Assembly: GCA_963706795.1 (NCBI GenBank)
Contig: OY970170.1
Span: forward strand, 1,020,001-1,052,000
Length of the DNA: 32,000 nt
Source of the DNA: Candidatus Saccharimonadota bacterium
Lineage (GTDB): Bacteria; Patescibacteriota; Gracilibacteria; BD1-5; UBA2023
Direction: 5' to 3'
Made by a program: the position numbers and the translations under genes. Each line of letters starts with the position of its first letter. Position 1 is the stretch's first letter. The notes beneath the pieces were generated by a model, which was not told where the DNA came from, did not search any database, and worked only from the letters and a program-made list of their open reading frames with translations. Below, in pieces: positions 2,174-20,371 of this stretch.

Positions 2174-2327
2174 AAAAATATTGTGTCGCTAATTGTGTTT
2201 TTGTATGCGATTTTGGACAAAAAGAAAAGCATCAGTGTTTAAGTTCTGATGCCGTTCTTGAGGTTGTTGGAATGTGTGTAATGGTGGCGAGGAGTAGAAT
2301 CGAACTACCGACACAAGGCTTTTCAGG
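2174..2327. repeat. attL: 154-bp direct repeat with the displaced 3' 46 nt of tRNA-Phe (2282-2327), the tRNA terminator hairpin and downstream flank
   Basis: Base-for-base identical to 14213-14366 by direct comparison (offset 12039). Identity stops at 2328 (aat...) versus 14367 (cct...). Confidence 0.9.
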
Positions 2328-2387
2328 AATTTTGAATAAAAAGCCATAGTTGTCAATGACCTAACTTTTGCTTCAAGTAAGGTAAAA

Positions 2388-3284
2388 TTAGGTGTACAAG
2401 TCAAGCGAGTTTATCTTTGTTCTAATAGCATCTACTTGGAAGTTCAAATAGATTTTTGTTGTATTGAGGTTGCTATGACCAAGAATTTGTGAGATATTAT
2501 ACAGGTTCAAGTCTTTCTTCGCGAGTTCAGTTGCAAAAGTATGACGGAACATGTGGGTGGTGATCTTAAAGGTCACCTTCTTTTTTATTCTGTAGAGTAC
2601 GTTGTAGATTTCTCGATGTTGTAACTTTCCTCAAATATAGGTAGGGAAGTATGCTTTTGGGTCAGCAAAGGTTCTGTTTCGTAAACTCTCGAATGATCGA
2701 AGAATGGGTTGGAGTTTTTCAAGAATCGGAACAATCCTATCTTTTTCTCATTTCCCACTTTGTACTCTGATATAACCCTCACTATGGTTTACATCCTCGG
2801 GCCTGAGATTTATGAGTTCGTAAAGTCTAAGCCCAGTGTAGAGATATGTGTAAACGATAGTTTTGTTGCGGGTATCAATGATGTCATCCTTGGGATACAT
2901 GCTATGTAAGAGCCAAAGAATCTTATCTATTTGATCCTTGGTAAAGTGCTTTGGAAGCTCTTTGGGGATCTTTTTGCGTACGATCTGATCGATGGGATTA
3001 GTAGTGATATAGTTTTCACGTACCAAGTATCAGCAAAATACTCTGTAGTCCTTACGTAAGCGATTGTATGTATGAGACGACCAATTATTTCTTGTTGATA
3101 GGTCAAAGAGTAGTCTACGGAAATTCTGAGCTGTAAATGTAGTTGGATCATCAAGCTCGATGAGCTCGTAATTCTGTAAGTGCCGAAGGGCTGTCTTGTA
3201 TGCTGAGAGCGATGCTTTGGTGAGTCCTTGTCAGTATTGCTTCTCCTCTAAAAAGGCATCCATGAAGTAATTGTTGAAACGCAT
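2388..3284 (-). CDS. int: Tyrosine recombinase / phage integrase (298 aa)
   Basis: ORF-track pieces 2388-2576 and 2748-3026 lie in the same frame and join through in-frame TGA at 2631, 2748, 3030 and 3231. The joined sequence reads ...RVQSGKGEKDRIVPI...HMFRHTFATELAKK...LGHSNLNTTKIYLN (R..HxxR..Y catalytic pattern). Start is ATG 3284-3282 and the stop is TAA at 2390-2388. Confidence 0.85.
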
Positions 3285-3457
3285 GATAAACACGATTAAA
3301 AGGCTAGGCCTCGTCTGTTATTTCAAGTGGCAAGTCGGGAATATTAAGGAGCGGGCGTACCGAAGTTCTTTGTGGTACATGGGTATTATTGCAGGTATTT
3401 TGATTTATGTCAACTAAATAACAACCTAAATACAACCTTTCAATATGTAATGAAAGG

Positions 3458-3509
3458 TACATATTGTATATGTACAATCGCTTATATACGTTTATCTGTA
3501 CATATACAA
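3458..3509. promoter_or_regulatory. Inverted-repeat cluster between the divergent int and DUF3892 genes (candidate operator)
   Basis: GTACATAT-TGT-ATATGTAC palindrome at 3458-3476. TGTATATGTACA (3466-3477) is the exact reverse complement of TGTACATATACA (3498-3509). Confidence 0.4.
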
Positions 3510-3619
3510 ACGCTATATATAGTGGTATGATTAAATTTTCTTTTGACAGAAACTTACTATTTGTGAGAATTAAAACAGACAGCGCGGCTGCTGTCCGTAT
3601 ATTGAATAACTTTCATAAC

Positions 3620-3919
3620 ATGCCAGAATTTCAGGTTACATGCATCACGAAACCAAATCGTGAAAGCAAGCATGAACACATTACCCATATTGGTAACATC
3701 GCAAATAAGTGGAGACTTACTAGAGGAGAGGCTATTAGACGCATAGATGCCAAAGAACAAGCTTACTATACTATTGAGCCGAGAACCCAAAACAAAGCCT
3801 ATGTTTGAGTAGTTCGTGAGGCTGGGAAAGTCCCATATCTAAGAACCCACGCAGATGGTTTCTATAATGATAACCTATTGAGTCTTGAAGAGTGTACGGA
3901 TGCTTGTAAACTCTACTAG
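3620..3919 (+). CDS. DUF3892-like small protein (99 aa)
   Basis: Starts MPEFQVTCITKPNRESKHEHITHIGN..WRLTRGEAIRRIDAKEQAYYT.. and continues through TGA 3806-3808 as ..KAYVGVVREAGKVPYLRTHADGFYNDNLLSLEEC.., ending at TAG 3917-3919. The pattern matches my recollection of DUF3892. Confidence 0.5.
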
Positions 3920-3938
3920 AAAAATAGATATGAAAATA

Positions 3939-3976
3939 AGAGGGGGAAGGAAGCCTATGGCATTCCTTCCCCCTCT
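3939..3976. terminator. Bidirectional stem-loop between the convergent DUF3892 and Zot-like genes
   Basis: AGAGGGGGAAGGAA / loop / TTCCTTCCCCCTCT. On the minus strand it is followed by TTATTTT. Confidence 0.65.
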
Positions 3977-3998
3977 TTCAACAATAGTAGGGTTTCGG

Positions 3999-4037
3999 GA
4001 GTCAAGTGTAACGGTTCTACGAACCGACACTTGACTC
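3999..4037. other. Long composite hairpin overlapping the last codons of the Zot-like gene
   Basis: GAGTCAAGTGT-AA-CGGTTC-TAC-GAACCG-ACACTTGACTC (11 + 6 bp). The Zot-like TAG stop (4019-4017) sits in the loop. Confidence 0.5.
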
Positions 4038-4841
4038 GGGAGATGTATCGGGCAACTGTGGCCTTAATTCTGGTGCAGGGGTGTCTAAAGACACGCCCAT
4101 GCCCCGAAGTCTCTCAAAGAGAGAACCTTTTGTATAAATACTCACTCATTCTTCGATGAGTTCTTTTGTGTGGTACTCGTAGTAAGGAAAAGGGAAGAAG
4201 GGATGTAGGTTTACATGCATACCAAATCCTACCTTTTCAGCTTTGGAGAGGTCTGGATCATCTGGGTTGAGTACATAGTAGTCATGATACCATCTGATGA
4301 AGTAGAGGCCCATTTTGTAATGTCTCCAAGTGGTTGCGAGTCTTCGGAATTTTACATCGAGATCGTGAGGATTTTGAACTCAGCAGAGAAAGAGGCAGTT
4401 GAGCTTTCTGGGCTGATAAATGAAGGAGAGGAGAGCTTCATTTTTACCTTTGAAGTTCTTGTCGAAGTTGCGGGAGTTGAAGTAGATGCCACCTTCATCG
4501 AGCGCGATGTTGAACCAGAGGTCTTTTGGGAGATTTGGATAGGTAGATCGGAAGATTGTGGCGCGTTCTTCGTATTCTTCGAGGTGGAGCTTTGGTTTGA
4601 GTGAATAGAGCTTTGCACGATCCTTGTAGAGGTTGATGTACTGGTGATAGTCGTAGATGTCGGAGAGGATATTGAGAAGGTCTTCGTGTGATTGAATTTG
4701 GAAGTCTGAATATCCAGTCCAATAGTTGGATATATTCACTGTCACTTTACGGTTTGCATCGTGGAGGTAGCGAGTGATCGCTTGAGTCTTACCAGCTCCA
4801 AAACGACCAAGAGTGAGATAGAAGCCATAGCGTTTTGACAT
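4017..4841 (-). CDS. Zot / pI-like P-loop assembly ATPase (274 aa)
   Basis: N-terminus MSKRYGFYLTLGRFGAGKTQ (Walker A) and FNIALDEGG (Walker B-like). The frame continues through TGA at 4380 and 4146 to TAG 4019-4017. It is the last gene of the morphogenesis operon, as gene I is in Ff phages. Confidence 0.7.
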
Positions 4842-4868
4842 GGGAGAGATTTGTTAGTGTTTTGGTGT

Positions 4869-5237
4869 TTAGTCGGATTTGAAGAGTCGATATACAAGAG
4901 ATCCAATTGAGAGAACAAAGAAGGAGGAATAGGCGTAGATAACGAGTGCTACGGTTGTTTTAGCGAGGAAGAGTGAGCCAAAGAGTGTCCATCCCATACA
5001 TATATGATACAGCGTGAAGGCAAGCAGTGGCGCTGTGAAATTCATGAAGAAGAGGAAGAATGTTGTGAAGACAACGAGTGAGCCGTACTTGTTAAGAAAT
5101 CTGTAGAGCACCTTGAAATACTGTGGGAATACATCAGCTGCTTTATCTACTATGAAGCCGAGAGCGATTCCTAACTGTGGGAGGAAGCCTTTTATGAGTT
5201 CATAGAAGGCAGTGAGAGCGCGGAGAATGAGAGACAT
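4869..5237 (-). CDS. Polytopic small membrane protein, g6p-like by size and position (122 aa)
   Basis: Standard ORF. It is very hydrophobic with about 3-4 TM segments. It lies between the adsorption-like gene and the Zot-like gene, where gene VI sits in Ff phages. Confidence 0.6.
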   Translation of the reverse strand: MSLILRALTAFYELIKGFLPQLGIALGFIVDKAADVFPQYFKVLYRFLNKYGSLVVFTTFFLFFMNFTAPLLAFTLYHICMGWTLFGSLFLAKTTVALVIYAYSSFFVLSIGSLVYRLFKSD

Positions 5238-5238
5238 A

Positions 5239-7332
5239 TTAGAAACGCTTAAAGACTATGAAGAACCCAAAGAGGAGTGGAACAGTCGCAAAGAATAGGG
5301 CGAGATAGTCAGGGAAGCCCATTACTCAGGGTGTGAAATCGAGCGCATAGGGTCTTTGGGATGTAGGTAGAGCCATATAGCTTGCCTGCATCTTTTGATA
5401 GCTTACGATGTGTACTCTTCCAAAGTAGCAGACCTTAGTGTCTTGAGGGGAAATACCTACAGAGTTGAGAAGTGAGAGAATGCTATTGATTGGTGCGGTT
5501 GTGACATCAAAGAGCTTATCTACAATGCTGAGGGATGCTTTGAGAGTTGAGTTATCTACTGCATCGGATGGATGTACAGAGAGACGGAAAGAAGTACCGT
5601 TTGATGAGTAGGCAAATGATCCATCTGAGGCAAACATTTCACATGCACTTCATTCGTTGGTTCATGTTCCTGTGAGACTTGAGAAGTTACCCACTGCACT
5701 TCCAGTTCAGGTGTTACCAAGTGATCCAGTGAGTGATTTGACGGGTGTTTTAAAGATTGAGAGAGCATCGGAGGGTGAGCTAAATTGGAAATTGAGCCCA
5801 CTGCCAAAAGCATCACTTCCACTTCCATTCAGTTGCCTAAGAAAGTCAGGGCGGACTTTACAGTAGTCGCCAGATGCATAGCAGTATTCAGCTGGCCCAC
5901 ATGAGTCCTTGCTTGACCAAGAACAGGAGTATTGAGGCGTGGAGCAGGCATTGCGAGTAACATCTCAGGAGTATTGAACTGTACCTGATCCTGCATACTG
6001 TCATGGATTGCTTATTTCAGGCATACACATATCTCCATTCGTCTTACAGAGATGAGCATTTGCATCCTGACATCGATAGTTTCATGAGATTGTTTTCCAT
6101 GAACAGGTGTTTGGTTGGAGGTCTTGGGATGTTCCCGAGACGCTTGTTGAGCCTGAGAAGGTTTGTGGGGTACAGGTCTGGGATTCTGTGGAGTAGTTGT
6201 TGGTTGATCAGGTGTAGGAGAACCATCACTGAGTAGATCATGAAAAGATCGATCCAGTAGTACTCGATGATCAGTTGCCTCACGTAGATGGTGGTGGTAC
6301 TGACATTGTTCATCCGCAGGCTATCATTGCAGGATCAAAACGTCATGAATCATCGGCACAATAATTCTTCATGTCGCTTGGACGAAGAAAACAGGAGTTA
6401 TAGAGTGGATTATTGCAGTGGAGATCCCATGAGTATATTTTACCATCTCAGGCGTTGATATAGAGATATGGATTCTCAAAGGTGGTAAACTTTCCGAGTG
6501 CATATACATAGGATCATGTGAAATATGTACCACCTCAGGAGAAATTATCGCTTGTGAGGTTTTGCTTGAGGACAAAAGAATTATCAGAGGTAACAAAGGC
6601 GGCAACTAATCAATCATTGTTAAACTCAGGAGGCATGAAACCGAGTGGAAGTGGGGCGGGCTGGATTCAGGTTTCAAGAATAAAGGTAGGTGCATTGCCA
6701 AATGGATAAAATCGTCCGAGCTTACCGCTAGCTGTTGGGTAGAGAAACTGTGTACCCAGTGATGTGGCTTTGGTAACGAAACGTTGTACGCGAGATCATT
6801 GTGACGGCGCTTCGAATCCTGCGGGTTTTGGAGCTTGAGAGAGATAAGTGAAGGTGAGATCAGAGTTGATGGCGTAGTATTTTACATAGTCGCCCTCGAT
6901 CGTAACTTCGATATTGTCTTTAAAGAATGGAGTGGTTACTGGCTTCCATCGTCAGTTAGTGCTGTCATAGAGTGCTAATGCATTTTCTATACCTGATCAA
7001 ACAATTGAGATCAGAGAAACAGTGTCACTTATTTTGTATACTTCGTAGAAGTTATAGACCGTACGAATATCGAATCCACAGCATGGTTGAGAATAGACTC
7101 TTCCCCAAACTACAGCTGTGCCATATGTATCACTGAGTGAGTAGATGTAGGTAGTTCAATATGATGAATAGTACTGAACACTGAGATTTACGTTATTGAG
7201 TACTGTACCTTTTTGTGCAACGGTTGGGGTTGTAACTACGTTAAAAGCGCTCGCAGGATTTACGAACGCTAGAGATGTCAGAATTAAGAGGCTAATAGTG
7301 AAAGCTGAGAGGATTTTGATATTTGTTTTCAT
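5239..7332 (-). CDS. Secreted, C-terminally anchored adsorption (g3p-like) minor coat protein (697 aa)
   Basis: A single minus frame is open from ATG 7332-7330 to TAA 5241-5239 with 23 in-frame TGA (my codon-by-codon read). It has a signal peptide (MKTNIKILSAFTISLLILTSLAFVNPASA), Cys-rich and Gly/Ser/Thr-rich segments, and a C-terminal TM (GFPDYLALFFATVPLLFGFFIVFKRF). Confidence 0.75.
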
Positions 7333-7341
7333 AGGTACAAA

Positions 7342-8232
7342 TTAGCGAGTACGACTTCAGGCTTTGTAGGCACGGATGCAGAGGAGGAAGAAAATGAGGA
7401 GTGAGAAAAAGACTCACCAGAAAAATGCACAGACAGTCACGATGAATCGGATGTCGATTGCATATGCTCATGAGTCTGAGTGACAACCTGCGGGTAAGAG
7501 TGATCCTGTGGCTTCGAATGCAATACAGGGGGCAGGAGATCAAATGGCTCATGAGTTGGTTGATCCTGTATTCGTGGATCAAGTGTTCGTGCTTCATGAA
7601 TTTGTTGATCCCGAGCCACTTGTAGGAGGTTCGGATGGTGGAATATACGTAGGAAGAATGCCGTTGAGATCGATTAAATCGCCATTTAGGTAGGTTGGTG
7701 CACAGCCATCAGTTGCGAGCTTGGGAGTTGGATCGATGTAGTAACGACCGAAACCGTAGTAACCAGCAGAGGGATTAAACGGGAAGAGTTGTCCGTCAGG
7801 TTGTCAGTGGGCTGAGTCATAGAGACAGTACCATTTTGAAGTGGTAGAGTTTGAGACTTTTGCCTTTCCTGCATCACTTCTCATTTGGTATCACGAAGCT
7901 ACATCTATGGGAAGCATGTCTGTGAAGATGCCGTTTGCAGAGGTTGGTGGAATGGGGGTTGATTGGACTATGCCTTCGGGTATGTGGCCAGCAGTAATGT
8001 CTACAGCTTTAAGTGAGAGTACTGTATCGAGTCAGAGATCACCAGAGTTTGCATTGTAGAGTCCGTCACAACTTCCTGCATTTACACTGTGACAAAACCA
8101 GTCTGTATGTATTGCACCATCCGAAGAGAAACCGAAGAGCTGATTTTCACCTTGATATATGCTGTATGCTGAAGTACTTAAGGTCTGGAAAAGAGGAACG
8201 GTTGCGAGAGCGAGAAGAAAATATTTGCGCAT
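7342..8232 (-). CDS. Second secreted, C-terminally anchored virion-tip-like protein (296 aa)
   Basis: Open from ATG 8232-8230 to TAA 7344-7342 with 10 in-frame TGA. It has a signal peptide (MRKYFLLALATVPLFQTLSTSA), a linker SGSGSTNSGSTNTGSTNTGSTNSG and a C-terminal TM (FIVTVCAFFWGVFFSLLIFFLLC). Confidence 0.7.
7549..7620 (-). repeat. Peptide-level tandem repeat (GSTN[S/T])x4 linker, several of its glycines encoded by TGA
   Basis: Read directly from the minus-strand translation of 7620-7549. At nucleotide level the repeat is imperfect. Confidence 0.6.
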
Positions 8233-8234
8233 GG

Positions 8235-8384
8235 CTATGAAGTTATGATCCAAAGAAACCAACCGATACAGTAGAAGGCAAAAGCCCCGAGGATGTATCC
8301 GTGTGCATGGGTTGTGAAGAACCAAAGAGGCCAGAGGATTGCATCTGCTGAGGCATCGAAGAAATAGGGGAGGAGGTATTGCAT
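8235..8384 (-). CDS. 49-aa hydrophobic protein (g7p/g9p-like small virion or assembly protein candidate)
   Basis: Sequence is MQYLLPYFFDASADAILWPLWFFTTHAHGYILGAFAFYCIGWFLWIITS, from ATG 8384-8382 to TAG 8237-8235. The stop lies 2 nt from the next gene's ATG. The ORF is below the ORF-track size cutoff. Confidence 0.5.
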   Translation of the reverse strand: MQYLLPYFFDASADAILWPLWFFTTHAHGYILGAFAFYCIGWFLWIITS

Positions 8385-8409
8385 AGATGATCCGTTAAGA
8401 AAGACGATA

Positions 8410-8438
8410 GAATTGGACTGAACTTGTCAGTCCAATTC
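8410..8438 (-). terminator. Perfect 12-bp stem-loop immediately after the major-coat-like gene
   Basis: GAATTGGACTGA-ACTTG-TCAGTCCAATTC, 10 nt downstream of the coat-like gene's stop. This parallels the terminator after gene VIII in Ff phages. Confidence 0.55.
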
Positions 8439-8448
8439 GCGATCCCGC

Positions 8449-8745
8449 CTAGCGAGAGATGAAGCCCTTGATGAGGCCTGTAGCTTTGTTCGCGATTGCG
8501 ATGGCTACGAGTCCGCCAGTGAATCCGAGAACGACTGTGAGAAGTGAGACACTTCCGTTGGCCATAGCCGTGTTCACAGGAGATGTTTCTGATCCAGAGA
8601 GTGTGAGTCGTCCGAAGTCAGTAGAGGTTGTATCTGTGACAACCTGAGCAGCGTGTGTGGCGCTTACTACGAGGAGTGGAACAACTGCCATTGTGACAGC
8701 TGATGCCTTGCGGAGAGTCTTGCTCTCCATGATTGCCTTGAACAT
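8449..8745 (-). CDS. Major coat protein (g8p-like) precursor (98 aa)
   Basis: It has a signal-like N-terminus (..AVTMAVVPLLVVSATHAAQ), an acidic/polar segment, a hydrophobic helix (SLLTVVLGFTGGLVAIAIA) and a basic tail (NKATGLIKGFISR). The stop is TAG. Confidence 0.65.
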   Translation of the reverse strand: MFKAIMESKTLRKASAVTMAVVPLLVVSATHAAQVVTDTTSTDFGRLTLSGSETSPVNTAMANGSVSLLTVVLGFTGGLVAIAIANKATGLIKGFISR

Positions 8746-8788
8746 AGAAAAAAGATGAAAGGGTAGAAGGCAGGGGTTTAGAGCCCCG

Positions 8789-8863
8789 TTCCTAGCTTCC
8801 GTGACATTTCTAGCGAACCTTTATGTCGTCAGGTTCATTTCGCTACTAGAGGGAAACTAGGAA
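8789..8863. other. ~75-nt imperfect long hairpin in the leader upstream of the coat-like gene
   Basis: On the minus strand, the outer 12-bp stem TTCCTAGTTTCC / GGAAGCTAGGAA (one G-U pair) encloses an inner stem TAGCG..AACC / GGTT-CGCTA. Confidence 0.4.
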
Positions 8864-8888
8864 TCGAGCTCGAAGCTGTGTTTGAGTA

Positions 8889-8967
8889 GAAAAAAAGACA
8901 CAAAAAAAGTGGTTCTCCGGCAACAGGCAGGTGGGTTCAGCGACCTGCTTGTATATGGTGAACCACT
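8889..8967 (-). terminator. Rho-independent terminator after the 99-aa gene
   Basis: On the minus strand, the stem AGTGGTTC...GAACCACT with inner GCAGGT/ACCTGC is followed by TTTTTTTGTGTCTTTTTTT. Confidence 0.6.
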
Positions 8968-8996
8968 TGATCTAATGAACAGTGTCTTGGATGGAA

Positions 8997-9296
8997 TTAC
9001 TTAGCCTCTTTGGCGAAAAGAGTTCCGATCTCCTTGAATTCTTCTTTGGTGAGTGAGAGCTTGAATGGTACTGGGAAGTACTTTTTGAGTTCATCTACCC
9101 ATTTCTTGGTAGTGAGAACGATCTCAACACGGTCGGAGGTTTTAACTTCTCCTGTGTCAGTGTTTGTTCGTTCACTGGTATATGCGACAACTTCGAGTTT
9201 ACGATCTACGTAACCTTCGCTAGTGAGTGTCTCGTGATTTACGAGATTTTGTTCGTTTAGACGAGCGAACTTCGTTTTGTTTTTGTCTGCGGGCAT
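8997..9296 (-). CDS. 99-aa hypothetical protein, first gene of the structural operon (g5p-position ssDNA-binding candidate)
   Basis: Standard ORF with no TGA. The assignment rests only on size and position upstream of the coat-like gene. I see no sequence similarity to known g5p. Confidence 0.35.
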   Translation of the reverse strand: MPADKNKTKFARLNEQNLVNHETLTSEGYVDRKLEVVAYTSERTNTDTGEVKTSDRVEIVLTTKKWVDELKKYFPVPFKLSLTKEEFKEIGTLFAKEAK

Positions 9297-9363
9297 AATC
9301 GAAAAATGAAGTATTAAAAAAGCCCGTTCAAGAGAAAGAGAGATCGATCAAATGAACAAGCGT

Positions 9364-9391
9364 ATTTTACTTATTGAAGGCAATATGTCAA
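9364..9391 (-). promoter_or_regulatory. Sigma70-like promoter for the structural operon
   Basis: On the minus strand: TTGACA (9391-9386), 16 nt, TAAAAT (9369-9364), about 70 nt upstream of ATG 9296. Confidence 0.5.
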
Positions 9392-9394
9392 CCT

Positions 9395-9417
9395 AATTAC
9401 AACCAAAAGTTGTAATT
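9395..9417. promoter_or_regulatory. Perfect 9-bp inverted repeat next to the -35 box (operator and/or terminator of the 58-aa gene)
   Basis: AATTACAAC-CAAAA-GTTGTAATT. It overlaps the TAA of the 58-aa gene and ends 3 nt from the -35 hexamer. Confidence 0.45.
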
Positions 9418-9592
9418 ATCTAACTTCGGGATGACCGTTGGAATTTTTATAGTGAGTATAGAACCATATAAGATGGTTGATCTTATCGTCATAAGATGAC
9501 AACGAAACTCCCGCTACCTCTATATTCAATGCCTTCATTTTCTCAACAGTCTGAGCTTTTAACTTAATAGCGTTTGGCTTTTTATCTTCCAT
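9416..9592 (-). CDS. 58-aa small protein, possible ribbon-helix-helix-type regulator
   Basis: Sequence is MEDKKPNAIKLKAQTVEKMKALNIEVAGVSLSSYDDKINHLIWFYTHYKNSNGHPEVR, from ATG 9592 to TAA 9418-9416, verified by index. It is below the ORF-track cutoff. The RHH call is a guess from the strand-helix-helix-like pattern. Confidence 0.4.
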   Translation of the reverse strand: MEDKKPNAIKLKAQTVEKMKALNIEVAGVSLSSYDDKINHLIWFYTHYKNSNGHPEVR

Positions 9593-9785
9593 GCTAGTTT
9601 GATATATGACAACTAGGAGTGTACAGATGGTTGTGTATTGGGCAACTGCTTTTTATAACTAAATTGGTAACATGGTGAATACATGAATATTTATCTTGAG
9701 GCTTTAGGAGGGGAAAAGTAGTGATATAAGGGTTATCATCATTGTATTAGCTCGGTTGATTATGGTTGTCGATGATTGCTACAAC

Positions 9786-9813
9786 TTGTGACAACCGGAT
9801 TAAATATTATAAT
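9786..9813 (+). promoter_or_regulatory. Near-consensus plus-strand promoter
   Basis: TTGTGA (9786-9791), 16 nt, TATAAT (9808-9813), 35 nt upstream of ATG 9849. Confidence 0.5.
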
Positions 9814-9848
9814 GACGATCCTCCTTGTATATATCTTATTTTATTAGC

Positions 9849-10103
9849 ATGTTCGTTCAATTTACAGGTCGAGCTGGAAGGATTAATACTATTAATGCTG
9901 ATTACATCATTCGTATTGATCCGAGTTATGACTGAATAAGCAAGCGCATTTCCGCTACTATAACCATATACGAGTGACTCTCTACTAACTGATCTACAAG
10001 TAGCAGTTCCACTACGACAGAGAATATATCCGATGAAGACTACGAAAGAATTATTGATCAACTAATGGGTGATAATTCGATACGAGAAATAACTATCGTG
10101 TAA
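9849..10103 (+). CDS. 84-aa hypothetical protein, divergent from the 58-aa gene
   Basis: Code-25 ORF with 3 in-frame TGA: MFVQFTGRAGRINTINADYIIRIDPSYDGISKRISATITIYEGLSTNGSTSSSSTTTENISDEDYERIIDQLMGDNSIREITIV. The promoter above precedes it, and its TAA is immediately followed by the 10105-10134 terminator. It competes with the track's minus ORF 9807-10061. Confidence 0.45.
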
Positions 10104-10104
10104 A

Positions 10105-10134
10105 TAAAAAACCTCCAGACTGGAGGTTTTTTTA
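10105..10134. terminator. Bidirectional rho-independent terminator
   Basis: AAAAAACCTCC-AGACT-GGAGGTTTTTT, with T-tracts in both orientations, between convergent genes. Confidence 0.75.
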
Positions 10135-10254
10135 TTGACCGAACTATCTATTTCTCTTCTCTTCAAGTTCTTTTGTGCCTTTGGACTTCCCATATACGAA
10201 TATACTCAGCAGTGTACCAAGAGCACCTATAATTGTTACAATTCCATATACACT

Positions 10255-10572
10255 TTTACCATCTAGTATAAGGTAGAACCCTCATCCTATAGAGGATAGA
10301 GTGATTGCTGAGGAAGATATCCATCCCAAAATCTGCATCAACTGATTAGATGCTATGACAGATTTTTCAAGTCCCATTCTGTGGGCTGCCTGATTTTCAG
10401 CCATGGACAAAATCCTGTCAGCAGCACCAGATAATACTAGTTCATATTTCTGAAATTCTTCGGCTGGTGGAATTGGTCCGGAGTATTGAGTGCTTTGCAT
10501 GGCAATGGTACGTTGCTGGTCCACCATACTTTCACTCACTTTCCTAAGCTGCTTGGCTACTTTGTGACTCAT
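10255..10572 (-). CDS. DUF2335-like membrane protein (105 aa as encoded; possibly frame-disrupted)
   Basis: Contains ..YSGPIPPAEEFQKYELVLSGAADRILSMAENQAAHRMGLEK.., the DUF2335 pattern as I recall it. It reads through TGA 10284-10282 to TAA 10257-10255 after one TM. See the finding on the out-of-frame second TM. Confidence 0.55.
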
Positions 10573-10772
10573 ACTGCCTGCATACTGTTACGAATATCGT
10601 CTCAAACAGCTGAAAAGTCAGAGCGAATAGCTCTATTGTCAGCTTCTTCTGTTGTAGCTGATTCGTTATATGAATCAAAAGTGCTGTAAATATCCATCGT
10701 CCTAGACATGCCACTCAAGAAGCTTGGATTGCTAAAGAGAAAGGTGGATCTAATTAGAGTAGAATTATTCAT
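10557..10772 (-). CDS. 71-aa hypothetical protein
   Basis: Sequence is MNNSTLIRSTFLFSNPSFLSGMSRTMDIYSTFDSYNESATTEEADNRAIRSDFSAVGDDIRNSMQAVGVTK. It has two in-frame TGA, ends at TAG 10559-10557 and overlaps the DUF2335-like start by 16 nt. Confidence 0.5.
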
Positions 10773-10802
10773 TTTTTTGTTGGTTACGGTAGATATTACT
10801 CG

Positions 10803-11117
10803 TTAAGTTGTAAAGTACAACACTTCACAGTAAAAATATGCATTTTCACTTGTTTCAAGGTGATTATACCATATTTTACATTCATTTGTTAAATTCCTCT
10901 TATGTTCGATACTTTCAACATACTCAGCACTGGAAGCTTCGGATTTTTTACCGTCGTTATCTGCGTTGGCTATTTCTTCTTGGAGTACATTGTACCTGAG
11001 TTCAAGGGGTTGCATGCAGTCATAAGAAGGCATGATGATTCTCTGTTTGATAGAGCAATACACTACATAACATGGGGCTTGGTTATAAATATAGTGATTT
11101 TTTTTCTCTGAACTCAT
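10803..11117 (-). CDS. 104-aa Cys-rich hypothetical protein
   Basis: Standard ORF in an AT-rich segment. It lies 30 nt upstream of the next gene and 24 nt downstream of the previous one. Confidence 0.4.
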   Translation of the reverse strand: MSSEKKNHYIYNQAPCYVVYCSIKQRIIMPSYDCMQPLELRYNVLQEEIANADNDGKKSEASSAEYVESIEHKRNLTNECKIWYNHLETSENAYFYCEVLYFTT

Positions 11118-11141
11118 TCAATAGCTCAATTAACCTGAGAC

Positions 11142-11417
11142 TTACTCACAAATGCGGGAGAGATAGCTAAGATTGTTGTCAGTGTATTCAAGGACCTCGA
11201 AATCGGATCGATTCAACTCGTTATCTTTTTTTTCTCCTACACATTGAGCATATGCATGCTTATGTTTGTCTTGAGGTATATTGCACTTACAGTGATTTTT
11301 CTTGTAAAAATCACTGAGCGAATGGCTGACGATAATTTTATAACCAAGAAGATGACCTGTAAGTTCAAGCGAATTCTCTGACATGCAGTATCTATAATCA
11401 GAGAAACATGAAAACAT
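11142..11417 (-). CDS. 91-aa Cys/His-rich hypothetical protein
   Basis: Standard ORF and first gene of a compact four-gene minus-strand unit. It contains ..NHCKCNIPQDKHKHAYAQC.. (possible metal ligands). Confidence 0.4.
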   Translation of the reverse strand: MFSCFSDYRYCMSENSLELTGHLLGYKIIVSHSLSDFYKKNHCKCNIPQDKHKHAYAQCVGEKKDNELNRSDFEVLEYTDNNLSYLSRICE

Positions 11418-11534
11418 AATCTTGATAAGATCTAAATGAATCTGAGGGAATATTTTTACAGTATGAATCGCATGAGAACTAAGATGATTTTCGTATAAAT
11501 ACCTACTTTGCTATAACTTAATACGCTATATCAT

Positions 11535-11636
11535 ATGCGTAAAATTTCTCTAAAGATTAAACAAGTTATCGGCCTTGTAGTTTTACTTTTCATTATAGCT
11601 ACATGGTTACAACTCAAGCTTCATTGGTTTTGATAA
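11535..11636 (+). CDS. 33-aa hydrophobic peptide ORF (speculative)
   Basis: Sequence is MRKISLKIKQVIGLVVLLFIIATWLQLKLHWFG. The TAA (11634-11636) abuts the 11635-11658 hairpin. Confidence 0.25.
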
Positions 11637-11663
11637 AAGCATCCTAGAGGATGCTTTTATTTT
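11635..11663. terminator. Bidirectional terminator hairpin
   Basis: AAAAGCATCC-TAGA-GGATGCTTTT followed by ATTTT. It overlaps the stop of the 11657-11890 gene. Confidence 0.65.
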
Positions 11664-11890
11664 AAGGCTAAACTCTCTGATGTAAGTATTATAAATACCA
11701 CTGTGATAAGTATAAATACATAGGGTATAAGTAATGTTACTAGCCATCCTAGGAAGTGCGTTTTACCCTTTGGGATAGGTTTCTCGAATATTTCTGCCAT
11801 ATGAGATACTGCATCATAGCAGTATAGTGCACATAAACATGAGAGTATTACGAGATACGCGAGATTTCGATAGAAGAGTGCATCATGCAT
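11657..11890 (-). CDS. 77-aa membrane protein (2 TM)
   Basis: Standard ORF with hydrophobic segments LAYLVILSCLCALYCY and GWLVTLLIPYVFILITVVFIIL. Confidence 0.5.
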   Translation of the reverse strand: MHDALFYRNLAYLVILSCLCALYCYDAVSHMAEIFEKPIPKGKTHFLGWLVTLLIPYVFILITVVFIILTSESLALK

Positions 11891-11912
11891 AGTGTTAATG
11901 AATAAGGGGTAG

Positions 11913-12146
11913 TTATTTCGTATTAGCTTCGACTTTTACTTTCTGTAGCTCTTCGAACATTCCTTTTTGGACTGTTCGAAGTTGTTTTATTTGCTCCGAG
12001 AGAGGTGGAGGTGGTTTTGGGAAGAATGTGTCCCACATAGAGAATCCCACGAGCCCGAGGATTGCCAGAAGCAATCCTATTTGGGCATATGAGAGCTCCT
12101 TGAGTGATAATCCACTCTTATGCTTTGCACTATGATCTTGTGACAT
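11913..12146 (-). CDS. 77-aa single-pass membrane protein
   Basis: Standard ORF with TM IGLLLAILGLVGFSMW, then PKPPPP and a charged helical tail. Confidence 0.5.
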   Translation of the reverse strand: MSQDHSAKHKSGLSLKELSYAQIGLLLAILGLVGFSMWDTFFPKPPPPLSEQIKQLRTVQKGMFEELQKVKVEANTK

Positions 12147-12158
12147 AGAAGAGATGGA

Positions 12159-12620
12159 TTATCGGATAAAGTTCTCAGTAACTTTGGCCATGGGTGCATG
12201 GTTTTTTCCAAAGTTTTCGATGATTTCGTTTTTACTTCGTTCTGAGTGTTCTTGTACTTCTGTACTTGCTTGCAGTGCGAGATCGACGCAGGCTGAGGGT
12301 TGAAACCCTCCGATCTCGCGTAGGTAGTCAATGCGTATCTGGAGGAGCTTCTTGAGTTCGTCTTTCTCGTGTGTGGTGAGTATTCTAGAGAGTACGATGC
12401 GGAGTTCATCGAGTTCGATGGAGCAGGCGCGATCGATTGGTGCAATCTGTGATACGAGAGTGAAGAGGTAGAACTCCATGGTATTTGTGTTCATTTGGTG
12501 TTTTGGTGATTGATATTGATATTTCGTATGCACCGTCAAAAAGTCTGCGACTTTTGGACAGTGTTGCTTGCGACCATCAGAAACCCATATAAAACCCGTT
12601 TGGGTATTTGTTTGGGTCAT
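12159..12620 (-). CDS. 153-aa hypothetical protein (start uncertain)
   Basis: Standard ORF, 12 nt upstream of the next gene. It looks helical and I recognise no motif. Confidence 0.45.
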   Translation of the reverse strand: MTQTNTQTGFIWVSDGRKQHCPKVADFLTVHTKYQYQSPKHQMNTNTMEFYLFTLVSQIAPIDRACSIELDELRIVLSRILTTHEKDELKKLLQIRIDYLREIGGFQPSACVDLALQASTEVQEHSERSKNEIIENFGKNHAPMAKVTENFIR

Positions 12621-12755
12621 TGATAGTTTTGGCGAAGGGTTTTCTACAGGTTTCAGACAGTCTGAGCAGATTACCCCGATGGGGTAATGCTTTGCATGTA
12701 CTAGGTAGAATGTCTAACGACTATTCAAAAGAGGAGTTTGTTGTTTTTAATGAGG

Positions 12756-13925
12756 CTAAGCAAAGATGGTGTCATGAAGTTCGAGAGCCTTTGAAGTGTT
12801 GTTAGCAAAGATTGATTCGAGTTCGTAGAAGGTTGAGGTGGATGCTGGTATAGGTTCGTCTTCAAAGAGGCGGAATCCGTACATGAGTAGGTCTGTGCCA
12901 TAGCGGTCAAAGAGGGTTTTAAAGAGTTCTTGGCGTGAAGTGATGGATGAGTAGGAGTCCATGTATGCTTCGTACATGGTGCGTGAACGGTTCTTGCGCT
13001 TGTAGATGATGTCTGAGACGAGGAGATCGCGTGCTTGTTTGAAGTAGTTCTCGTCTGTAGGTTTACGTACGGGGAACGGTTTTCGTTTATGACTGAGTAG
13101 GTAGCTGAGTGAGAAGTTGAGATTTTCTTCGAATTGATCGATGGCGTATTGTTCTATATGCTCGAATATTGATTCGAGTGATAAGTCTACGAGCTCTTTT
13201 ATGCCTTTGGAGTTCTTGCGATACTCTAGGCGTGTAATTGGTGGTTGGTTCTCATCTTTATATGGTGCAAAGGGGAGAGTTCAGCGGGCTACTATTTCGT
13301 ATTTTCTCTTGTCTATGACATCGAGCATCTTGTTGTAGATGGCTATTTCGTGTCTGTCTGACTTGAGGTAGTACCATGTGGTGATTCAGTTTACTTTGAA
13401 TTCCTTGGTCTTTTTTTGGTTCTTGGCGTAGCGTTTGGAGAACTCGTGAGCGTCTATGCCTTGTATATCCACGCACCAGTCAATGCGAGATACAATCTTT
13501 TGAGTATGTACGTTTATCTCGAAGAGTTCGAAGAAGTAGGGGAGAAGGTCTGAGTAAGCTGTGAAGAAGAGTCCAGTGAACTCTATGTCCGAATAAACGA
13601 TCTTGAGATCGTTTTTCTTGGCGAGTTTGAGATGTATCGTTGCGATAATCTGTGCTGTTTCTGAGAGTACATGGAGTACTTTTAGGCGGTTTCCGTTTAC
13701 ATTGCCGAAGTAAGTAATGCGGAGTCAGTGATCCAATATGTGTGTATTGGAGTTGCCAACGAGTCCGTAGAGCTTGATAGCAATTCGTGTTCGGTTGGAG
13801 ATTCGAACTGTGAGGTAGTCGATGCCTTTATAGAAAACTGAGAGGTGATTTCTAAGGACTATTTTCTTGGTTCTCGCGTAGAGTTTTGTGTCCGTTTTTA
13901 GCGGGACATTTTGTGTTTTTGCCAT
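12756..13925 (-). CDS. Rolling-circle replication initiator, Rep_trans (PF02486)/RstA-like (389 aa)
   Basis: Pieces 13725-13925 and 12756-12977 share one frame, which is open throughout with TGA at 13725, 13386 and 13281. The motifs GIDYLTVRI, SRIDWCVDIQG and EIAIYNKMLD resemble the iDyl / RiDla.D / iY.K blocks I recall for this family. The stop is TAG 12758-12756. Confidence 0.6.
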
Positions 13926-13973
13926 TTCACTCGTTTTAATGATTGGGATGAGGAAAGGTTGGGTGTGTGGATA

Positions 13974-14011
13974 GTACCTATCGCCCCCTATTATCTATAG
14001 GGGGCGGGTAC
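13974..14011. other. Strong hairpin upstream of rep (origin or regulatory candidate)
   Basis: GTACC-TAT-CGCCCCCTA-TTATCTA-TAGGGGGCG-GGTAC. Confidence 0.45.
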
Positions 14012-14212
14012 ATTTATTTTTTCTGGAGAATTTGGGTAGTTTTTCGTGGGCGTGAGATGTACCAAAAAAGTATGCCTAGCATCACATATGGACTAAGGAC
14101 TATACCGATGGTTCATATTTCTTGTGGTGTCATGATTGGGCTTTTAGACAAATAAAAAGCCCGCTCCTTAATGAAACGAACCACTTGAAAAAACGAGGCT
14201 AAAATTTGGTCA

Positions 14213-14366
14213 AAAAATATTGTGTCGCTAATTGTGTTTTTGTATGCGATTTTGGACAAAAAGAAAAGCATCAGTGTTTAAGTTCTGATGCCGTTCTTGA
14301 GGTTGTTGGAATGTGTGTAATGGTGGCGAGGAGTAGAATCGAACTACCGACACAAGGCTTTTCAGG
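14213..14366. repeat. attR: 154-bp direct repeat supplying the 3' half of the intact tRNA-Phe and its terminator
   Basis: Identical to 2174-2327. Confidence 0.9.
14255..14291 (-). terminator. tRNA-Phe terminator, also present in the attL copy at 2216-2252
   Basis: On the minus strand: GCATCAG-AACTTAAACA-CTGATGC followed by TTTTCTTTTT. Confidence 0.6.
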
Positions 14367-14395
14367 CCTCTGCTCTACCACTGAGCTACCCCGCC
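14321..14395 (-). tRNA. tRNA-Phe (anticodon GAA), CCA encoded
   Basis: Reverse complement is GGCGGGGTAGCTCAGTGGTAGAGCAGAGGCCTGAAAAGCCTTGTGTCGGTAGTTCGATTCTACTCCTCGCCACCA. The cloverleaf folds by hand: 7-bp acceptor stem, GCTC/GAGC D stem, GAGGC/GCCTT anticodon stem, loop CTGAAAA, and a TTCGATT T-loop. Confidence 0.9.
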
Positions 14396-17400: not shown

Positions 17401-18398
17401 TCGAGCCCAAAATCATAGCGGTAATTGAGACCGCGAATACAGAGCCTTCGGAGATTCCATTCTTCGTCGGCGAGCTGGATTGTTCAGGGTGGAAGAATAC
17501 TGAGATAGGCGTTGTAGTCTGCTGCTTCGTCTGGTGCGAGCTCGAATTTTGGGATGAGGGTTTTTCCGTAGGGGATTTCGATATTGATCTGGCTGGAGAT
17601 CTTGAGGGTGTTCTCGATGGCATCTGGCGCATACGAAAAAAGCTCGCGCATCTCTTCGGGACTACGAAGCGAATAGTTTCCTTCGATGAGTGTAGGGCGA
17701 TCGGGGTCTTCAAGCGAGCGTCCATCTCCAATACAAAAGAGGAGATCTTGAGCCTCGTTGTCTTCTTCGGTGAGATAATAACTGTCATTCGCAGCCACGA
17801 GTGGGAAGCTGTATTCGCGGGCAATTTTTACAAATGTGTCATTGATCTTGGTCTGTGATCCACGATCTGGATGCTCGAGAAGCTCGAGATAAAAGTTACC
17901 TTTACCGAAGAGACTTTCGTAGTATTCGATGCGTTCGACGACATATTCTCGTGGACGACCGGTTGTGACGTGCTGGGCGATTTCACCGGTGTGATTACCG
18001 GAGAGTGCTATGAGATCGGACTTGTAATGATCGAGGAGCTCAAAGTCGATGCGTGGCTTAAAATAAAATCCATGGAGATAGGATTCGGTGACCATGGCGA
18101 TGAGGTTTTGGTACCCATCAAAATTCTTGGCTAAAAGCACGATCTGATAGAGATCATTGTCCTTATCTTTATTTGTACGACCCTTTCGTGCGATGGTAAA
18201 TTCGACTCCGATGATGGGATTTACGCCCGCTTCTTTGGCATATTTATAAAACTCAAATGCACCATACAAATTTCCTGCGTCCGTGAGTGCGAGACCTGGC
18301 ATGCCTAATTCTTTGGCTTTGTGTGCCAGCTTTTTAGGAGTTCCAAGACCCTGGAGGAAGGAATAATGTGTATGTGTATGGAGGTGTACAAATGACAT
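14499..18398 (-). CDS. dnaE: DNA polymerase III alpha subunit (1299 aa)
   Basis: Five ORF-track pieces share one frame and are joined by TGA at 17484, 17112, 16971, 16692, 15672 and 15432. No TAA/TAG occurs in the gaps I checked by index. It has the PHP N-terminus [17 protein letters not shown] plus GPGR[TGA]SAAG and KLE[TGA]..GVHA motifs. The stop is TAA 14501-14499. Confidence 0.95.
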
Positions 18399-19669: not shown

Positions 19670-20233
19670 ATGAACGAACAAAAATCTCTCATCCTCGCTA
19701 TCGTTGGTCCTATCGGATCAGGGAAGGGGACTGTATCCTCCTATATCGAGCGACATTATGGTGCTGTGACTTTCAAGTCTTCGAAGCCACTTCGTCGAAT
19801 ATTGGAAATCCTTGATATCGAAGTAAGTCGATCGACAATGCAATTTCTCTCACAGCTTTTGCGAGAGTCCTATGGACAGGATTCGATTGCTCGTATCGCC
19901 AAGCGCGAAGTTGCGAATTCAGATGCGCGCATCTCAATCATTGATGGAGCTCGTCGCATTCCGGATATTGCACCATTTTTGGGTCTGCCGAATTTTGCAC
20001 TTATCTATATCGATGCCAGCGCTGAGGTGAGATATTCTCGTATTACGAAACGTGCAGAGAATGCAGGAGATTCAGAGAAAACTTTCGAGGAATTCATGCA
20101 AGAAGAACTCGGTGAACCCGAAAGCAACACTCGCTCGCTTCACGAAAAAGCTGCATACACGATCGATAATTCTACCAATGAAGCCGAACTGATGGCACGA
20201 GTCGATGAAATTATGGCAAAACTTATGGCATAA
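19670..20233 (+). CDS. P-loop nucleotide/nucleoside kinase-like protein (187 aa)
   Basis: Starts MNEQKSLILAIVGPIGSGKGT (Walker A). It has IIDGARR and a lid-like region RYSRITKRAE. The stop is TAA. Confidence 0.6.
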   Translation: MNEQKSLILAIVGPIGSGKGTVSSYIERHYGAVTFKSSKPLRRILEILDIEVSRSTMQFLSQLLRESYGQDSIARIAKREVANSDARISIIDGARRIPDIAPFLGLPNFALIYIDASAEVRYSRITKRAENAGDSEKTFEEFMQEELGEPESNTRSLHEKAAYTIDNSTNEAELMARVDEIMAKLMA

Positions 20234-20245
20234 GCCTTGCTAAAA

Positions 20246-20281
20246 TAAAAACCCCTTTCGATCGAAAGGGGTTTTTATTTT
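20246..20281 (+). terminator. Rho-independent terminator
   Basis: AAAACCCCTTTCGATCGAAAGGGGTTTTTATTTTT. Confidence 0.8.
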
Positions 20282-20371
20282 TCGTAGAATTTTCCTTTAA
20301 AGTCTACCTCATTTTCATAGACTTCGCCAGAGCTGTGTTTACAAAGACAGAGTTGCTTCTATACTGAGTGC

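Follow-up and report, generated by a model that had tools for sequence, protein, structure and literature searches.

A probable filamentous-type prophage in a tRNA-Phe locus of Gracilibacteria that read TGA as glycine

We analyzed a 32,000-nucleotide (nt) stretch of contig OY970170.1 (positions 1,020,001 to 1,052,000; hereafter, the window), in which a preliminary description made from the letters alone had placed an inovirus-like prophage. Our results indicate that positions 2174-14366 probably represent an integrated, apparently intact temperate phage of the filamentous type (inovirus-like, Tubulavirales-like) that resides in a member of the Gracilibacteria and uses TGA as a glycine codon. 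Its membership in an inovirus-type phage or prophage lineage, which we regard as likely, has a structural, motif-level and comparative basis. Genes were translated under genetic code 25, and every gene listed in the preliminary description was found as an intact open reading frame (ORF) under this code. All proteins of the element were scanned against Pfam and PHROG, where the core proteins gave no usable match except for the integrase and the DUF3892 protein.

The insertion, its genetic code and its relatives

A repeat search of the 32 kb returned a single long pair of direct repeats, 2169-2327 and 14208-14366, which are 159 nt long, 99% identical and spaced 12,039 from start to start. Mismatches occur at 2172-2173 only, leaving a perfect core of 154 bp (2174-2327 and 14213-14366) that cannot have arisen by chance within 32 kb; the perfect 154-bp repeats bounding 12,039 bp in the preliminary description were thereby confirmed at the same coordinates. 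The one tRNA gene that ARAGORN detected in the window is that for tRNA-Phe(GAA), on the minus strand at 14321-14395, and the right repeat copy contains the 3' 46 nt of this gene, a feature absent from the preliminary description and added here. The other 108 nt of the repeat contain, read on the tRNA strand, a hairpin with a T-run behind it (14261-14298), so that the terminator of tRNA-Phe is part of the repeat as well. Given that the repeat duplicates the tRNA-Phe 3' end, it corresponds to a textbook tRNA attachment (att) site. Specifically, attL (2174-2327) is the left 154-bp copy, whose positions 2282-2327 duplicate the 3' 46 nt of tRNA-Phe, and attR (14213-14366) is the right copy, consisting of these 46 nt and the 108 nt with the tRNA terminator hairpin. 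The intact tRNA-Phe, the integration target, is located directly downstream of the host gene dnaE (14499-18398, minus strand, 6 in-frame TGA). Adjoining attL is the gene for a 298-amino-acid (aa) tyrosine integrase (2388-3284, minus strand; PF00589, E 1.5e-30; phrog_1, E 1e-44), so that a PF00589 recombinase lies beside a tRNA-derived att repeat, as in tRNA-targeting elements. Positions 2174-14366 are a discrete insertion of ~12 kb in tRNA-Phe.

The code-25 host proposed in the preliminary description was borne out by ORF coverage and by the codons at invariant glycines. ORFs of at least 100 aa in six frames covered 79.9 kb when TAA and TAG alone served as stops, compared with 34.5 kb under the standard code. 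In the P-loop ATPase family of the element (see below), the three invariant glycines of the Walker A motif (GxxGxGKT) were encoded by TGA at 19 of 36 positions across 12 elements, alternating with GGN, indicating that code 25 (UGA = Gly) is common to the element and the host. Note that Walker A reads "WEFWAWKT" in database homologues translated with code 4. Many of the public records P0004-P0034 (alignment A1) have W where the gene encodes Gly, which weakens searches based on hidden Markov models (HMMs) and on words. The best named relatives of the host DnaE are Candidatus Gracilibacteria (66-72% identity), and the right flank contains housekeeping genes for MoxR, DUF58, DprA, MurG, MiaB and a solute-binding protein.

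We found ~40 relatives of the element, and those with names are nearly all Gracilibacteria. When GTDB species representatives were scanned with a glycine-free 40-aa block, the module was detected in 12 loci, nearly all of them Candidatus Gracilibacteria and including the closed genome CP042461; further loci came from JGI metagenomes (13) and Logan assemblies (several). The order shared by the 12 genome loci and the Logan contigs is Rep, a 58-aa protein, in some cases a 99-aa protein, the coat block, a g3-like protein, a g6-like protein, the ATPase and the integrase. Att repeats at tRNA genes were found in four relatives: L004 (tRNA-Phe, repeat 73 nt, spacing 11,403), L005 (tRNA-Phe, 49 nt, 10,588), L006 (tRNA-Phe directly after dnaE, the same locus as in the window; 95 nt, 11,028) and L010 (tRNA-Arg, 111 nt, 12,084). 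Integrase homologues adjoin att in L001, L004, L005, L006, L010 and L011. Furthermore, the two Logan contigs L001 and L040 have the 30-nt terminal overlap expected of circles at k = 31. The 8,635-bp circle L001 runs from Rep through the integrase and then has 47 nt that match the tRNA-Phe 3' end of the window exactly and represent its attP, and the 9,032-bp circle L040 (Logan SRR15882481) has the Rep, g3-like, g6-like and ATPase genes and no integrase. In both circles all genes are on one strand, and the family as a whole has the small genome (~5-15 kb), the mostly short co-oriented genes and the order of replication, coat, adsorption and assembly genes by which inoviruses are recognised. On the other side, the loci L022 and L024, which have the closest DnaE proteins (70% and 66%), carry tRNA-Phe after dnaE and no element genes; the dnaE-tRNA-Phe adjacency is kept in L006, L022 and L024. 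The tRNA att sites of four relatives, the two circular relatives and the unoccupied dnaE-tRNA-Phe loci thus show a mobile family whose members integrate at specific sites and occur as small circles.

These comparisons also bear on whether the repeats could be an assembly artefact, in which case the segment would not be a discrete insertion. The independent Logan contig L041 (ERR12037365), 100% identical to window positions 2298-6337, ends 30 nt inside the repeat, indicating that assemblers break there; however, a break one k-mer into a true repeat is the expected output of a de Bruijn assembler. Moreover, the repeat is exactly the tRNA 3' part plus the terminator with the integrase adjoining, the same architecture occurs with different repeat sequences in four other genomes, and related hosts have dnaE-tRNA-Phe without the element. 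Given the att sites of the relatives, the circles, the unoccupied sites and the independent identical contig, an assembly artefact is very unlikely.

Some relatives showed peculiarities of their own. In L004 (837-12342), the intact tRNA-Phe is integrase-proximal and on the opposite strand, while it is Rep-proximal in the window, L005 and L006; the attP segment of the L004 lineage seems to be inverted relative to int, judging from this layout. L040 has a GC content of 56%, compared with 28-45% in other members, and a DUF5658 ORF after the ATPase gene; TGA is still a sense codon in this circle, with 8 in the g3-like gene. In L024 (14164-23978; GCA_028713325.1, JAQTON010000001.1), dnaE-tRNA-Phe is followed by genes for a resolvase, a 710-aa Toprim protein, an N6/N4 methyltransferase and a ResIII/SNF2 helicase, and elements of several kinds may preferentially integrate at tRNA-Phe. 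The family is also present in the only closed Gracilibacteria genome examined (L003; CP042461.1, 1438-6293), where a bona fide single-stranded DNA-binding protein (SSB; PF00436, E 1.8e-27) occupies the pV position and a Shedu-like nuclease gene (SduA_C-like) lies on the opposite strand. The 422-aa Rep of L003 has more canonical motifs (RLDIAID, RVYDK and RRIELE) and was missed by the Rep-family HMM. No integrase was found in L003 by BLAST, and the locus is bracketed by repeats of 261 nt (94%) and 130 nt (92%). The paper on this closed genome mentions no prophage.

The replication initiator and the Zot/pI-like ATPase

The 389-aa protein encoded at 12756-13925 on the minus strand has the motifs IDYLT (position 35), RIDWCVD (147), YNK (197, containing the putative catalytic Tyr) and TRLEYR (231). 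An exhaustive phmmer search recovered 48 homologues, compared with 1 by a word-indexed search. Invariant columns are few in their alignment and make up three motifs, R-x-D-[YW]-x-x-D, Y-[ND]-K and T-R-x-E-Y-R. The strictly conserved active-site residues of Rep_trans initiators in RepD are R140, D142, A144, D146, the catalytic Y191, K193, R212 and E214 (Carr et al., PMC4797284). Their counterparts in the window Rep are R147-I-D149-W-C-V-D153, Y197-N-K199 and R232-L-E234, in alignment columns where all, or at least 90%, of 35 homologues agree, and the spacing from D to Y is 44 residues in the window Rep and 45 in RepD. The window Rep thus contains the Rep_trans active-site residues and deviates from RepD at two residues: A144 is replaced by Cys, and an equivalent of R189 is absent.

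The fold was examined with the AlphaFold (AF2) model of a 71%-identical homologue (P0036; predicted local distance difference test (pLDDT) score 86). The sole PDB matches of this model with E < 0.001 were RepDE, 4cwc_A and 4cwe_A (E 3.7e-7 and 8.1e-7; probability 1.00; TM-score 0.43-0.46 on the target), and all others had E > 0.01; the model has the crescent beta-sheet fold of RepDE and RepSTK1. Its best viral match in BFVD was a protein of Inoviridae sp. ctS4A1 (E 5.6e-11). As for sequence profiles, a PDB search with the Rep alignment came back empty, one Rep family member matched the related Phage_CRI family (E 0.0049), and hhalign of the Rep family against a mixed inovirus Rep alignment gave P = 0.42 with the RxDxxxD segment alone aligned. 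From the predicted fold and the motifs, we conclude that 12756-13925 encodes a putative rolling-circle initiator of the Rep_trans type that is too divergent for the Pfam HMM. The RepDE fold match and the active-site motifs support the Rep_trans-like initiator named in the preliminary description.

Upstream of rep by 57-81 nt, a hairpin with a perfect 10-bp stem and a 5-nt loop was found at 13982-14006 (CGCCCCCTAT-AGATA-ATAGGGGGCG). This hairpin is identical in L001, though the flanking DNA is only ~71% identical. At the corresponding site, the more distant relatives L007, L008, L012 and L016 have a GC-rich stem of another sequence, closed by a related loop that contains GATAA (TCGCCCTACA-ATGATAA-TGTAGGGCGA). 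Since a changed stem with a retained loop is expected of a rolling-circle double-strand origin, the hairpin at 13982-14006 is a candidate for this origin.

The second core protein is a putative P-loop morphogenesis ATPase of the Zot/pI type (274 aa; 4017-4841, minus strand), assigned by motifs, predicted fold and hhalign. It has a Walker A motif (GRFGAGKT) and a Walker B motif (IALDE); its 35 homologues are all without Pfam domains, and the named ones are all Candidatus Gracilibacteria. With the AF2 model (pLDDT 86) of a 99%-identical homologue (P0001), the top four BFVD matches were Inoviridae Zot proteins (E 2e-11 to 1.5e-7, TM-score 0.41-0.60), one of which belongs to Inoviridae sp. ctS4A1, the same phage that supplied the best viral match for Rep. 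We also compared the family with 46 reference proteins of the inoviruses M13, Pf1, VGJphi, B5 and MV-L1. Among these, the best match of the ATPase family HMM was M13 pI (E 8.9e-5), and hhalign of the family against a pI alignment gave P = 3.7e-4 over 133 columns, with negative controls at ~0.8. The aligned columns span Walker A, the Walker B motif DExGxxFNxR and RKLxxxhhhhxQ; for example, LVLDECGTWFNTR aligned with IALDEGGIYFNSR, and ARKLGWDIIFLVQD with PRKLNCLFLCGVQN. In addition, phrog_1675 (protein I of M13) matched the ATPase weakly (E 0.0047), and a PDB sequence-profile search with the ATPase alignment gave nothing beyond noise. The Zot/pI ATPase of the preliminary description is therefore supported by the Zot structural matches and the alignment with pI motifs, that is, by fold and family-specific motifs and not by the PF05707 HMM. 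Many relatives of the ATPase have an N-terminal helix, and a few have C-terminal hydrophobic extensions.

The structural block and alternative explanations

Between the small genes downstream of rep and the ATPase gene, the minus strand encodes a series of membrane-associated proteins. The first is a 98-aa precursor resembling a major coat protein (8449-8745), with a signal-like segment at residues 14-32 ending in THA|AQ, an acidic N-terminal part, a transmembrane segment at 66-84 and a basic tail. The predicted mature part is 66 aa long, and its last 15 residues include 3 basic and 0 acidic ones. It therefore has the features of a short, single-transmembrane coat protein with a signal peptide, an acidic N-terminus and a basic C-terminus, without homology to one: no HMM match was found in Pfam or PHROG. 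By blastp, the ORF matched an ORF of L011 (E 5e-5), and when 15 relatives were screened automatically, 13 were found to have a coat-like ORF of this layout, 80-108 aa long, ahead of the g3-like gene. The coat gene is immediately followed by a terminator-like hairpin (8410-8438, minus strand) with a perfect 12-bp stem and a 5-nt loop, the strongest site of this kind in the region; in 7 of the 15 relatives, the coat-like ORF likewise precedes a comparable GC-rich hairpin. The coat topology and the perfect stem agree with the coat precursor and immediate hairpin of the preliminary description.

Next is a 49-aa protein (8235-8384) that is hydrophobic according to its hydropathy, a candidate minor coat protein of the pVII/pIX type; hydrophobic ORFs of ~50 aa with a basic tail occupy the same position in L001, L003, L004, L005, L010, L038 and L039. 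It is followed by a 296-aa secreted, C-terminally anchored protein (7342-8232) with a signal peptide and a Ser/Thr/Asn-rich linker. The C-terminal part of this protein is homologous to anchored proteins of ~92 aa in relatives, and C-anchored ORFs of ~92-123 aa were often located upstream of the large protein in the 15 screened relatives. The large protein itself, which occupies the pIII position, is a putative adsorption or terminal protein of 697 aa (5239-7332) with a signal peptide, a C-terminal anchor and 23 in-frame TGA. Its C-terminal ~150 aa are conserved across relatives and its N-terminal parts vary; the same pattern of a conserved C-terminal and a variable N-terminal part is found in pIII. 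Thus, the 49-aa hydrophobic protein and the two proteins with a signal peptide and a C-terminal anchor in the preliminary description were recovered as intact ORFs with matching hydrophobic segments. Finally, a 122-aa multi-pass membrane protein in the pVI position (4869-5237) has at least two hydrophobic segments and abuts the ATPase gene; its family contains a YH motif and lies directly upstream of the ATPase in relatives. For the g6p-like protein of the preliminary description, multi-pass topology and position held up and homology to pVI did not.

Type IV pili are the usual receptors of inoviruses, and they are candidate receptors here. T2SSE/T2SSF genes (type IV pilus or type II secretion system) were observed near related prophages or in related hosts (L015:1073-2068 and L024:2041-3144).

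Several results weigh against the assignment to filamentous phages. The Pfam matches proposed as checks in the preliminary description were sought and not found: PF02486 (Rep_trans) matched neither the window Rep nor any of the 35 family members, and PF05707 (Zot) did not match the window ATPase, the best of 34 family members reaching E = 0.17. Taken literally, the lack of significant matches to Zot and Rep families, which the preliminary description had named as the outcome that would speak against it, is close to what we obtained. No match of the window proteins to Phage_CRI or to any inovirus coat family of Pfam was found at usable thresholds. The proteins of the structural block showed no homology to reference pVIII, pIII or pVI in Pfam, PHROG and hhalign comparisons, with P ≥ 0.1 for the g6-like and g3-like C-terminal families against reference pVI and pIII, so that the putative coat, g3-like and g6-like roles follow from size, position, topology and conservation across relatives and not from homology. 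Between distantly related inoviruses, such an absence of homology is common. In tblastn searches of GenBank phages, the ATPase and Rep gave no match at E ≤ 1, and a scan of IMG/VR revealed no relatives. Furthermore, the Foldseek TM-scores of the two models were moderate (0.43-0.60), the window ATPase has neither a transmembrane segment nor the C-terminal domain of canonical pI, and an exact search of JGI metagenomes with the att sequence gave no match, and hence no empty-site or circular-junction support for this strain.

Some of these results would suit an integrative rolling-circle plasmid or a mobilizable element that makes no filament. In such an element, Rep would serve as initiator or MOBT-like relaxase and the P-loop protein as an ATPase for partition or coupling, and the membrane proteins would be cargo or surface factors. 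Rep_trans proteins also serve pT181-type plasmids and, as relaxases, integrative and conjugative elements (ICEs) (PMC4797284), the structural proteins have no detectable homology to phage coat proteins, the ATPase model also matched FtsK-HerA/A32-type packaging ATPases (E ~1e-5 or weaker), and circular contigs fit a plasmid as well as a replicative form. However, the best matches of the ATPase were to Zot, Zot-specific motifs beyond Walker A and B aligned with M13 pI, and Rep and the ATPase shared the uncultivated inovirus ctS4A1 as best viral match. The order and gene sizes of an inovirus morphogenesis block are reproduced in every relative, and circles of 8.6-9.0 kb hold little besides this block. 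In addition, no match to a type IV secretion system (T4SS), coupling-protein or partition family was found for the element proteins in Pfam or PHROG. The VirB4, VirD4 or FtsK-type coupling protein, T4SS and oriT of a MOBT ICE or integrative and mobilizable element were not found, and the sole ATPase groups with Zot. We therefore consider a plasmid or mobilizable element rather improbable. Two further candidates were rejected: a tailed prophage, given no terminase, portal or tail match, and a conjugative element, given no T4SS match. Among the Pfam and PHROG matches of the element proteins, there was no secretin, terminase, portal or tail gene.

The element could also be a genuine inovirus-type prophage that is cryptic or defective and vertically inherited, perhaps kept for cargo such as the DUF2335 and DUF3892 genes. 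The lack of excision or circular-junction evidence for the window element in the att search, an ATPase without the N-terminal membrane helix of many relatives, and the absence of a recognisable ssDNA-binding protein in the element would agree with such a state. On the other hand, none of the core ORFs is disrupted under code 25, the two att repeats match perfectly along their 154 bp, suggesting recent integration, ATPase variants without a transmembrane segment recur in several independent relatives (P0002, P0008 and P0020-P0026), and close relatives occur as circles. A defective prophage thus appears distinctly unlikely.

For an apparently intact temperate filamentous-type phage, we infer excision of the window copy, the nick site, packaging of single-stranded DNA (ssDNA), filament formation and the roles of the individual membrane proteins as follows. 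The integrase would excise the element by recombination between attL and attR, yielding a circle with attP. Rep would then nick the plus strand; the probable site is the AT-rich loop of the GC-rich hairpin that is conserved ahead of rep. The tyrosine of the YNK motif of Rep would become covalently attached and start rolling-circle ssDNA synthesis. The ssDNA would be coated (by SSB in one relative, by another protein here) and delivered to the membrane, where the coat protein, processed to 66 aa, would be waiting together with the ~50-aa hydrophobic protein and the two anchored proteins of 296 and 697 aa. The SSB gene in the pV position of L003 is the single, indirect hint at a virion with ssDNA. 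Extrusion of the filament would be powered by the Zot-like ATPase, which may be held at the membrane by an N-terminal helix, as in many relatives, or by the adjacent 122-aa membrane protein, as in the window. Since the host would have no outer membrane, a secretin may be dispensable; the paper on the closed Gracilibacteria genome reports no lipid A pathway. The strong hairpin after the coat gene may allow high coat expression relative to the downstream genes, as in Ff phages, and integration would rebuild a functional tRNA-Phe with its terminator.

Comparison with known phages, accessory genes and flanking regions

The element resembles the Ff phages (M13/fd) in the order of initiator, small genes, coat gene with a strong hairpin, anchored adsorption protein, multi-pass protein and P-loop ATPase, in having all core genes on one strand, and in the Walker A, DExGxxFNxR and RKLxxxhhhhxQ motifs of pI, which align with the window ATPase. 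Unlike Ff phages, the element brings a tyrosine integrase of its own and uses a tRNA att site, it lacks the pIV secretin, its ATPase is without the central transmembrane segment and the C-terminal domain, TGA encodes Gly, and there is no BLAST-level similarity. The initiator also differs, being predicted to be of the Rep_trans type; M13 gII belongs to Pfam Phage_CRI and was only a non-significant top match of the Rep HMM. In addition, the ~50-aa hydrophobic gene follows the coat gene instead of preceding it. Of the canonical filamentous-phage synteny claimed in the preliminary description, the overall order was upheld.

With CTXphi/VGJphi-type phages, the element shares a Zot-family ATPase and a lysogenic, integrating life style (attP is annotated in VGJphi), and differs from them in their diderm hosts and in the absence of a significant Rep profile match. 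CTXphi/VGJphi-type phages use host XerCD at dif, not their own integrase at a tRNA. Their rolling-circle initiator, a further point in common, was placed in the Rep_trans family (PMC4797284). Propionibacterium phage B5 (Paulinoviridae) and the plectroviruses resemble the window element in their small genomes, which carry no secretin gene, and in having a short ATPase and a compactly arranged structural block; B5 has no annotated integrase and no detectable protein sequence similarity to it. The best structural matches were from Inoviridae sp. ctS4A1 and ctjYd14 (ATPase, E 2e-11 and 1.5e-10; Rep with ctS4A1, E 5.6e-11), at a sequence identity of 16-19% and without a BLAST match. In its logic, the element is closest to the Rep_trans integrating inoviruses of the CTXphi/VGJphi type and to the secretin-less monoderm inoviruses such as B5.

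Gracilibacteria are uncultured, ultra-small and host-dependent bacteria with a reassigned stop codon, and their phages reported so far were identified via hallmark genes of tailed phages. Specifically, a 2023 description of Gracilibacteria prophages drew on portal, tail-related, terminase or integrase genes as support. Inoviruses were predicted in silico in the Candidate Phyla Radiation (CPR) by Roux et al. (2019), and a later preprint counts nine inovirus-like phages for Patescibacteria. There was no Gracilibacteria or Absconditabacteria entry in the accessible part of the supplementary tables of Roux et al. (2019), and a literature search found nothing joining Gracilibacteria with filamentous phage. 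The CPR predictions temper the novelty suggested in the preliminary description, and the surprise is limited since inoviruses were already predicted across nearly all bacterial phyla, including the CPR. On balance, we lean towards regarding the family as the first recognised filamentous-phage lineage of code-25 Gracilibacteria, a family-level Tubulavirales clade missed by HMMs, IMG/VR and GenBank. Such a clade would stand out by a Zot-type ATPase that works without a secretin and is truncated or N-terminally anchored, by an integrase of its own directed at tRNA genes, and by TGA as glycine. If this is true, a temperate filamentous phage adds a chronic, non-lytic mode of infection to Gracilibacteria biology, and the inovirus assembly machinery works in a CPR envelope without a secretin. 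If active, an integrase-bearing, tRNA-targeting code-25 replicon of 8.6-12 kb would be a natural vector candidate for bacteria without genetic tools and a model of chronic, non-lytic infection. Inovirus detectors that depend on pI HMMs and standard-code gene calling would miss the whole lineage.

Several small genes lie between rep and the coat gene. The 99-aa soluble protein in the pV position (8997-9296, minus strand) has homologues in L001, L005 and L010. The gV role that the preliminary description implied for it is unsupported, since the best hhalign P of its family against g5p-type proteins was 0.012, revealing no detectable link, and PDB sequence searches with the 58-aa and 99-aa proteins gave noise only. 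The 58-aa protein (9416-9592, minus strand) is a putative regulator without a family match and is the most conserved small protein of the family (~50% identity). A perfect 10-bp inverted repeat (9394-9418; TAATTACAAC/GTTGTAATTA) overlaps the 3' end of the 58-aa gene and sits just upstream of a promoter-like site for the 99-aa gene. Another perfect inverted repeat, with 15-bp arms (AAGAGGGGGAAGGAA/TTCCTTCCCCCTCTT), lies at 3938-3977 between the ATPase and DUF3892 genes. Both are possible operators, terminators or a minus-origin.

Downstream of rep are an acidic protein (12159-12620, minus strand) with 72% identity to a 111-aa ORF of L001, which would be ~112 aa long if started at the Met matching this homologue, and a 77-aa single-pass membrane protein (11913-12146, minus strand) that is conserved in L001. 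The region 9593-11900 has a GC content of 0.35-0.38, compared with 0.44-0.47 elsewhere, and no counterpart in L001; given the lower GC and its absence from this compact circle, the 9.6-11.9-kb block looks like accessory cargo. It encodes an 84-aa ORF (9849-10103, plus strand), a DUF2335 membrane protein (10144-10572, minus strand; PF10097, E 8.7e-13; phrog_3996, E 4.8e-30) and small ORFs at 10557-10772, 10803-11117 and 11657-11890. At the other end of the element, a DUF3892 protein, also cargo, is encoded on the plus strand at 3470-3919 (domain residues 55-139; PF13031, E 6e-14; phrog_8224, E 2.4e-16); like the integrase, this gene of the preliminary description passed in Pfam. The DUF3892 gene is inside the att bounds in the window and L041, yet outside the att repeat in L006 (12456-12743); judging from these positions, it may be a separately mobile or host-derived gene and not a core phage gene.

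Two further observations concern the host flanks. To the left of the element, positions 3-2006 on the minus strand encode a protein of at least 667 aa with 16 in-frame TGA and a CxxxCxxC motif (CSVGCAFC); it is essentially uncharacterised, and its sole Pfam signal was a sub-threshold match to Radical_SAM (E 0.039). To the right, a palindrome at 20200-20323 with 62-nt arms, 71% complementarity and no spacer is located between a nucleotide-kinase-like gene and the MoxR AAA gene.

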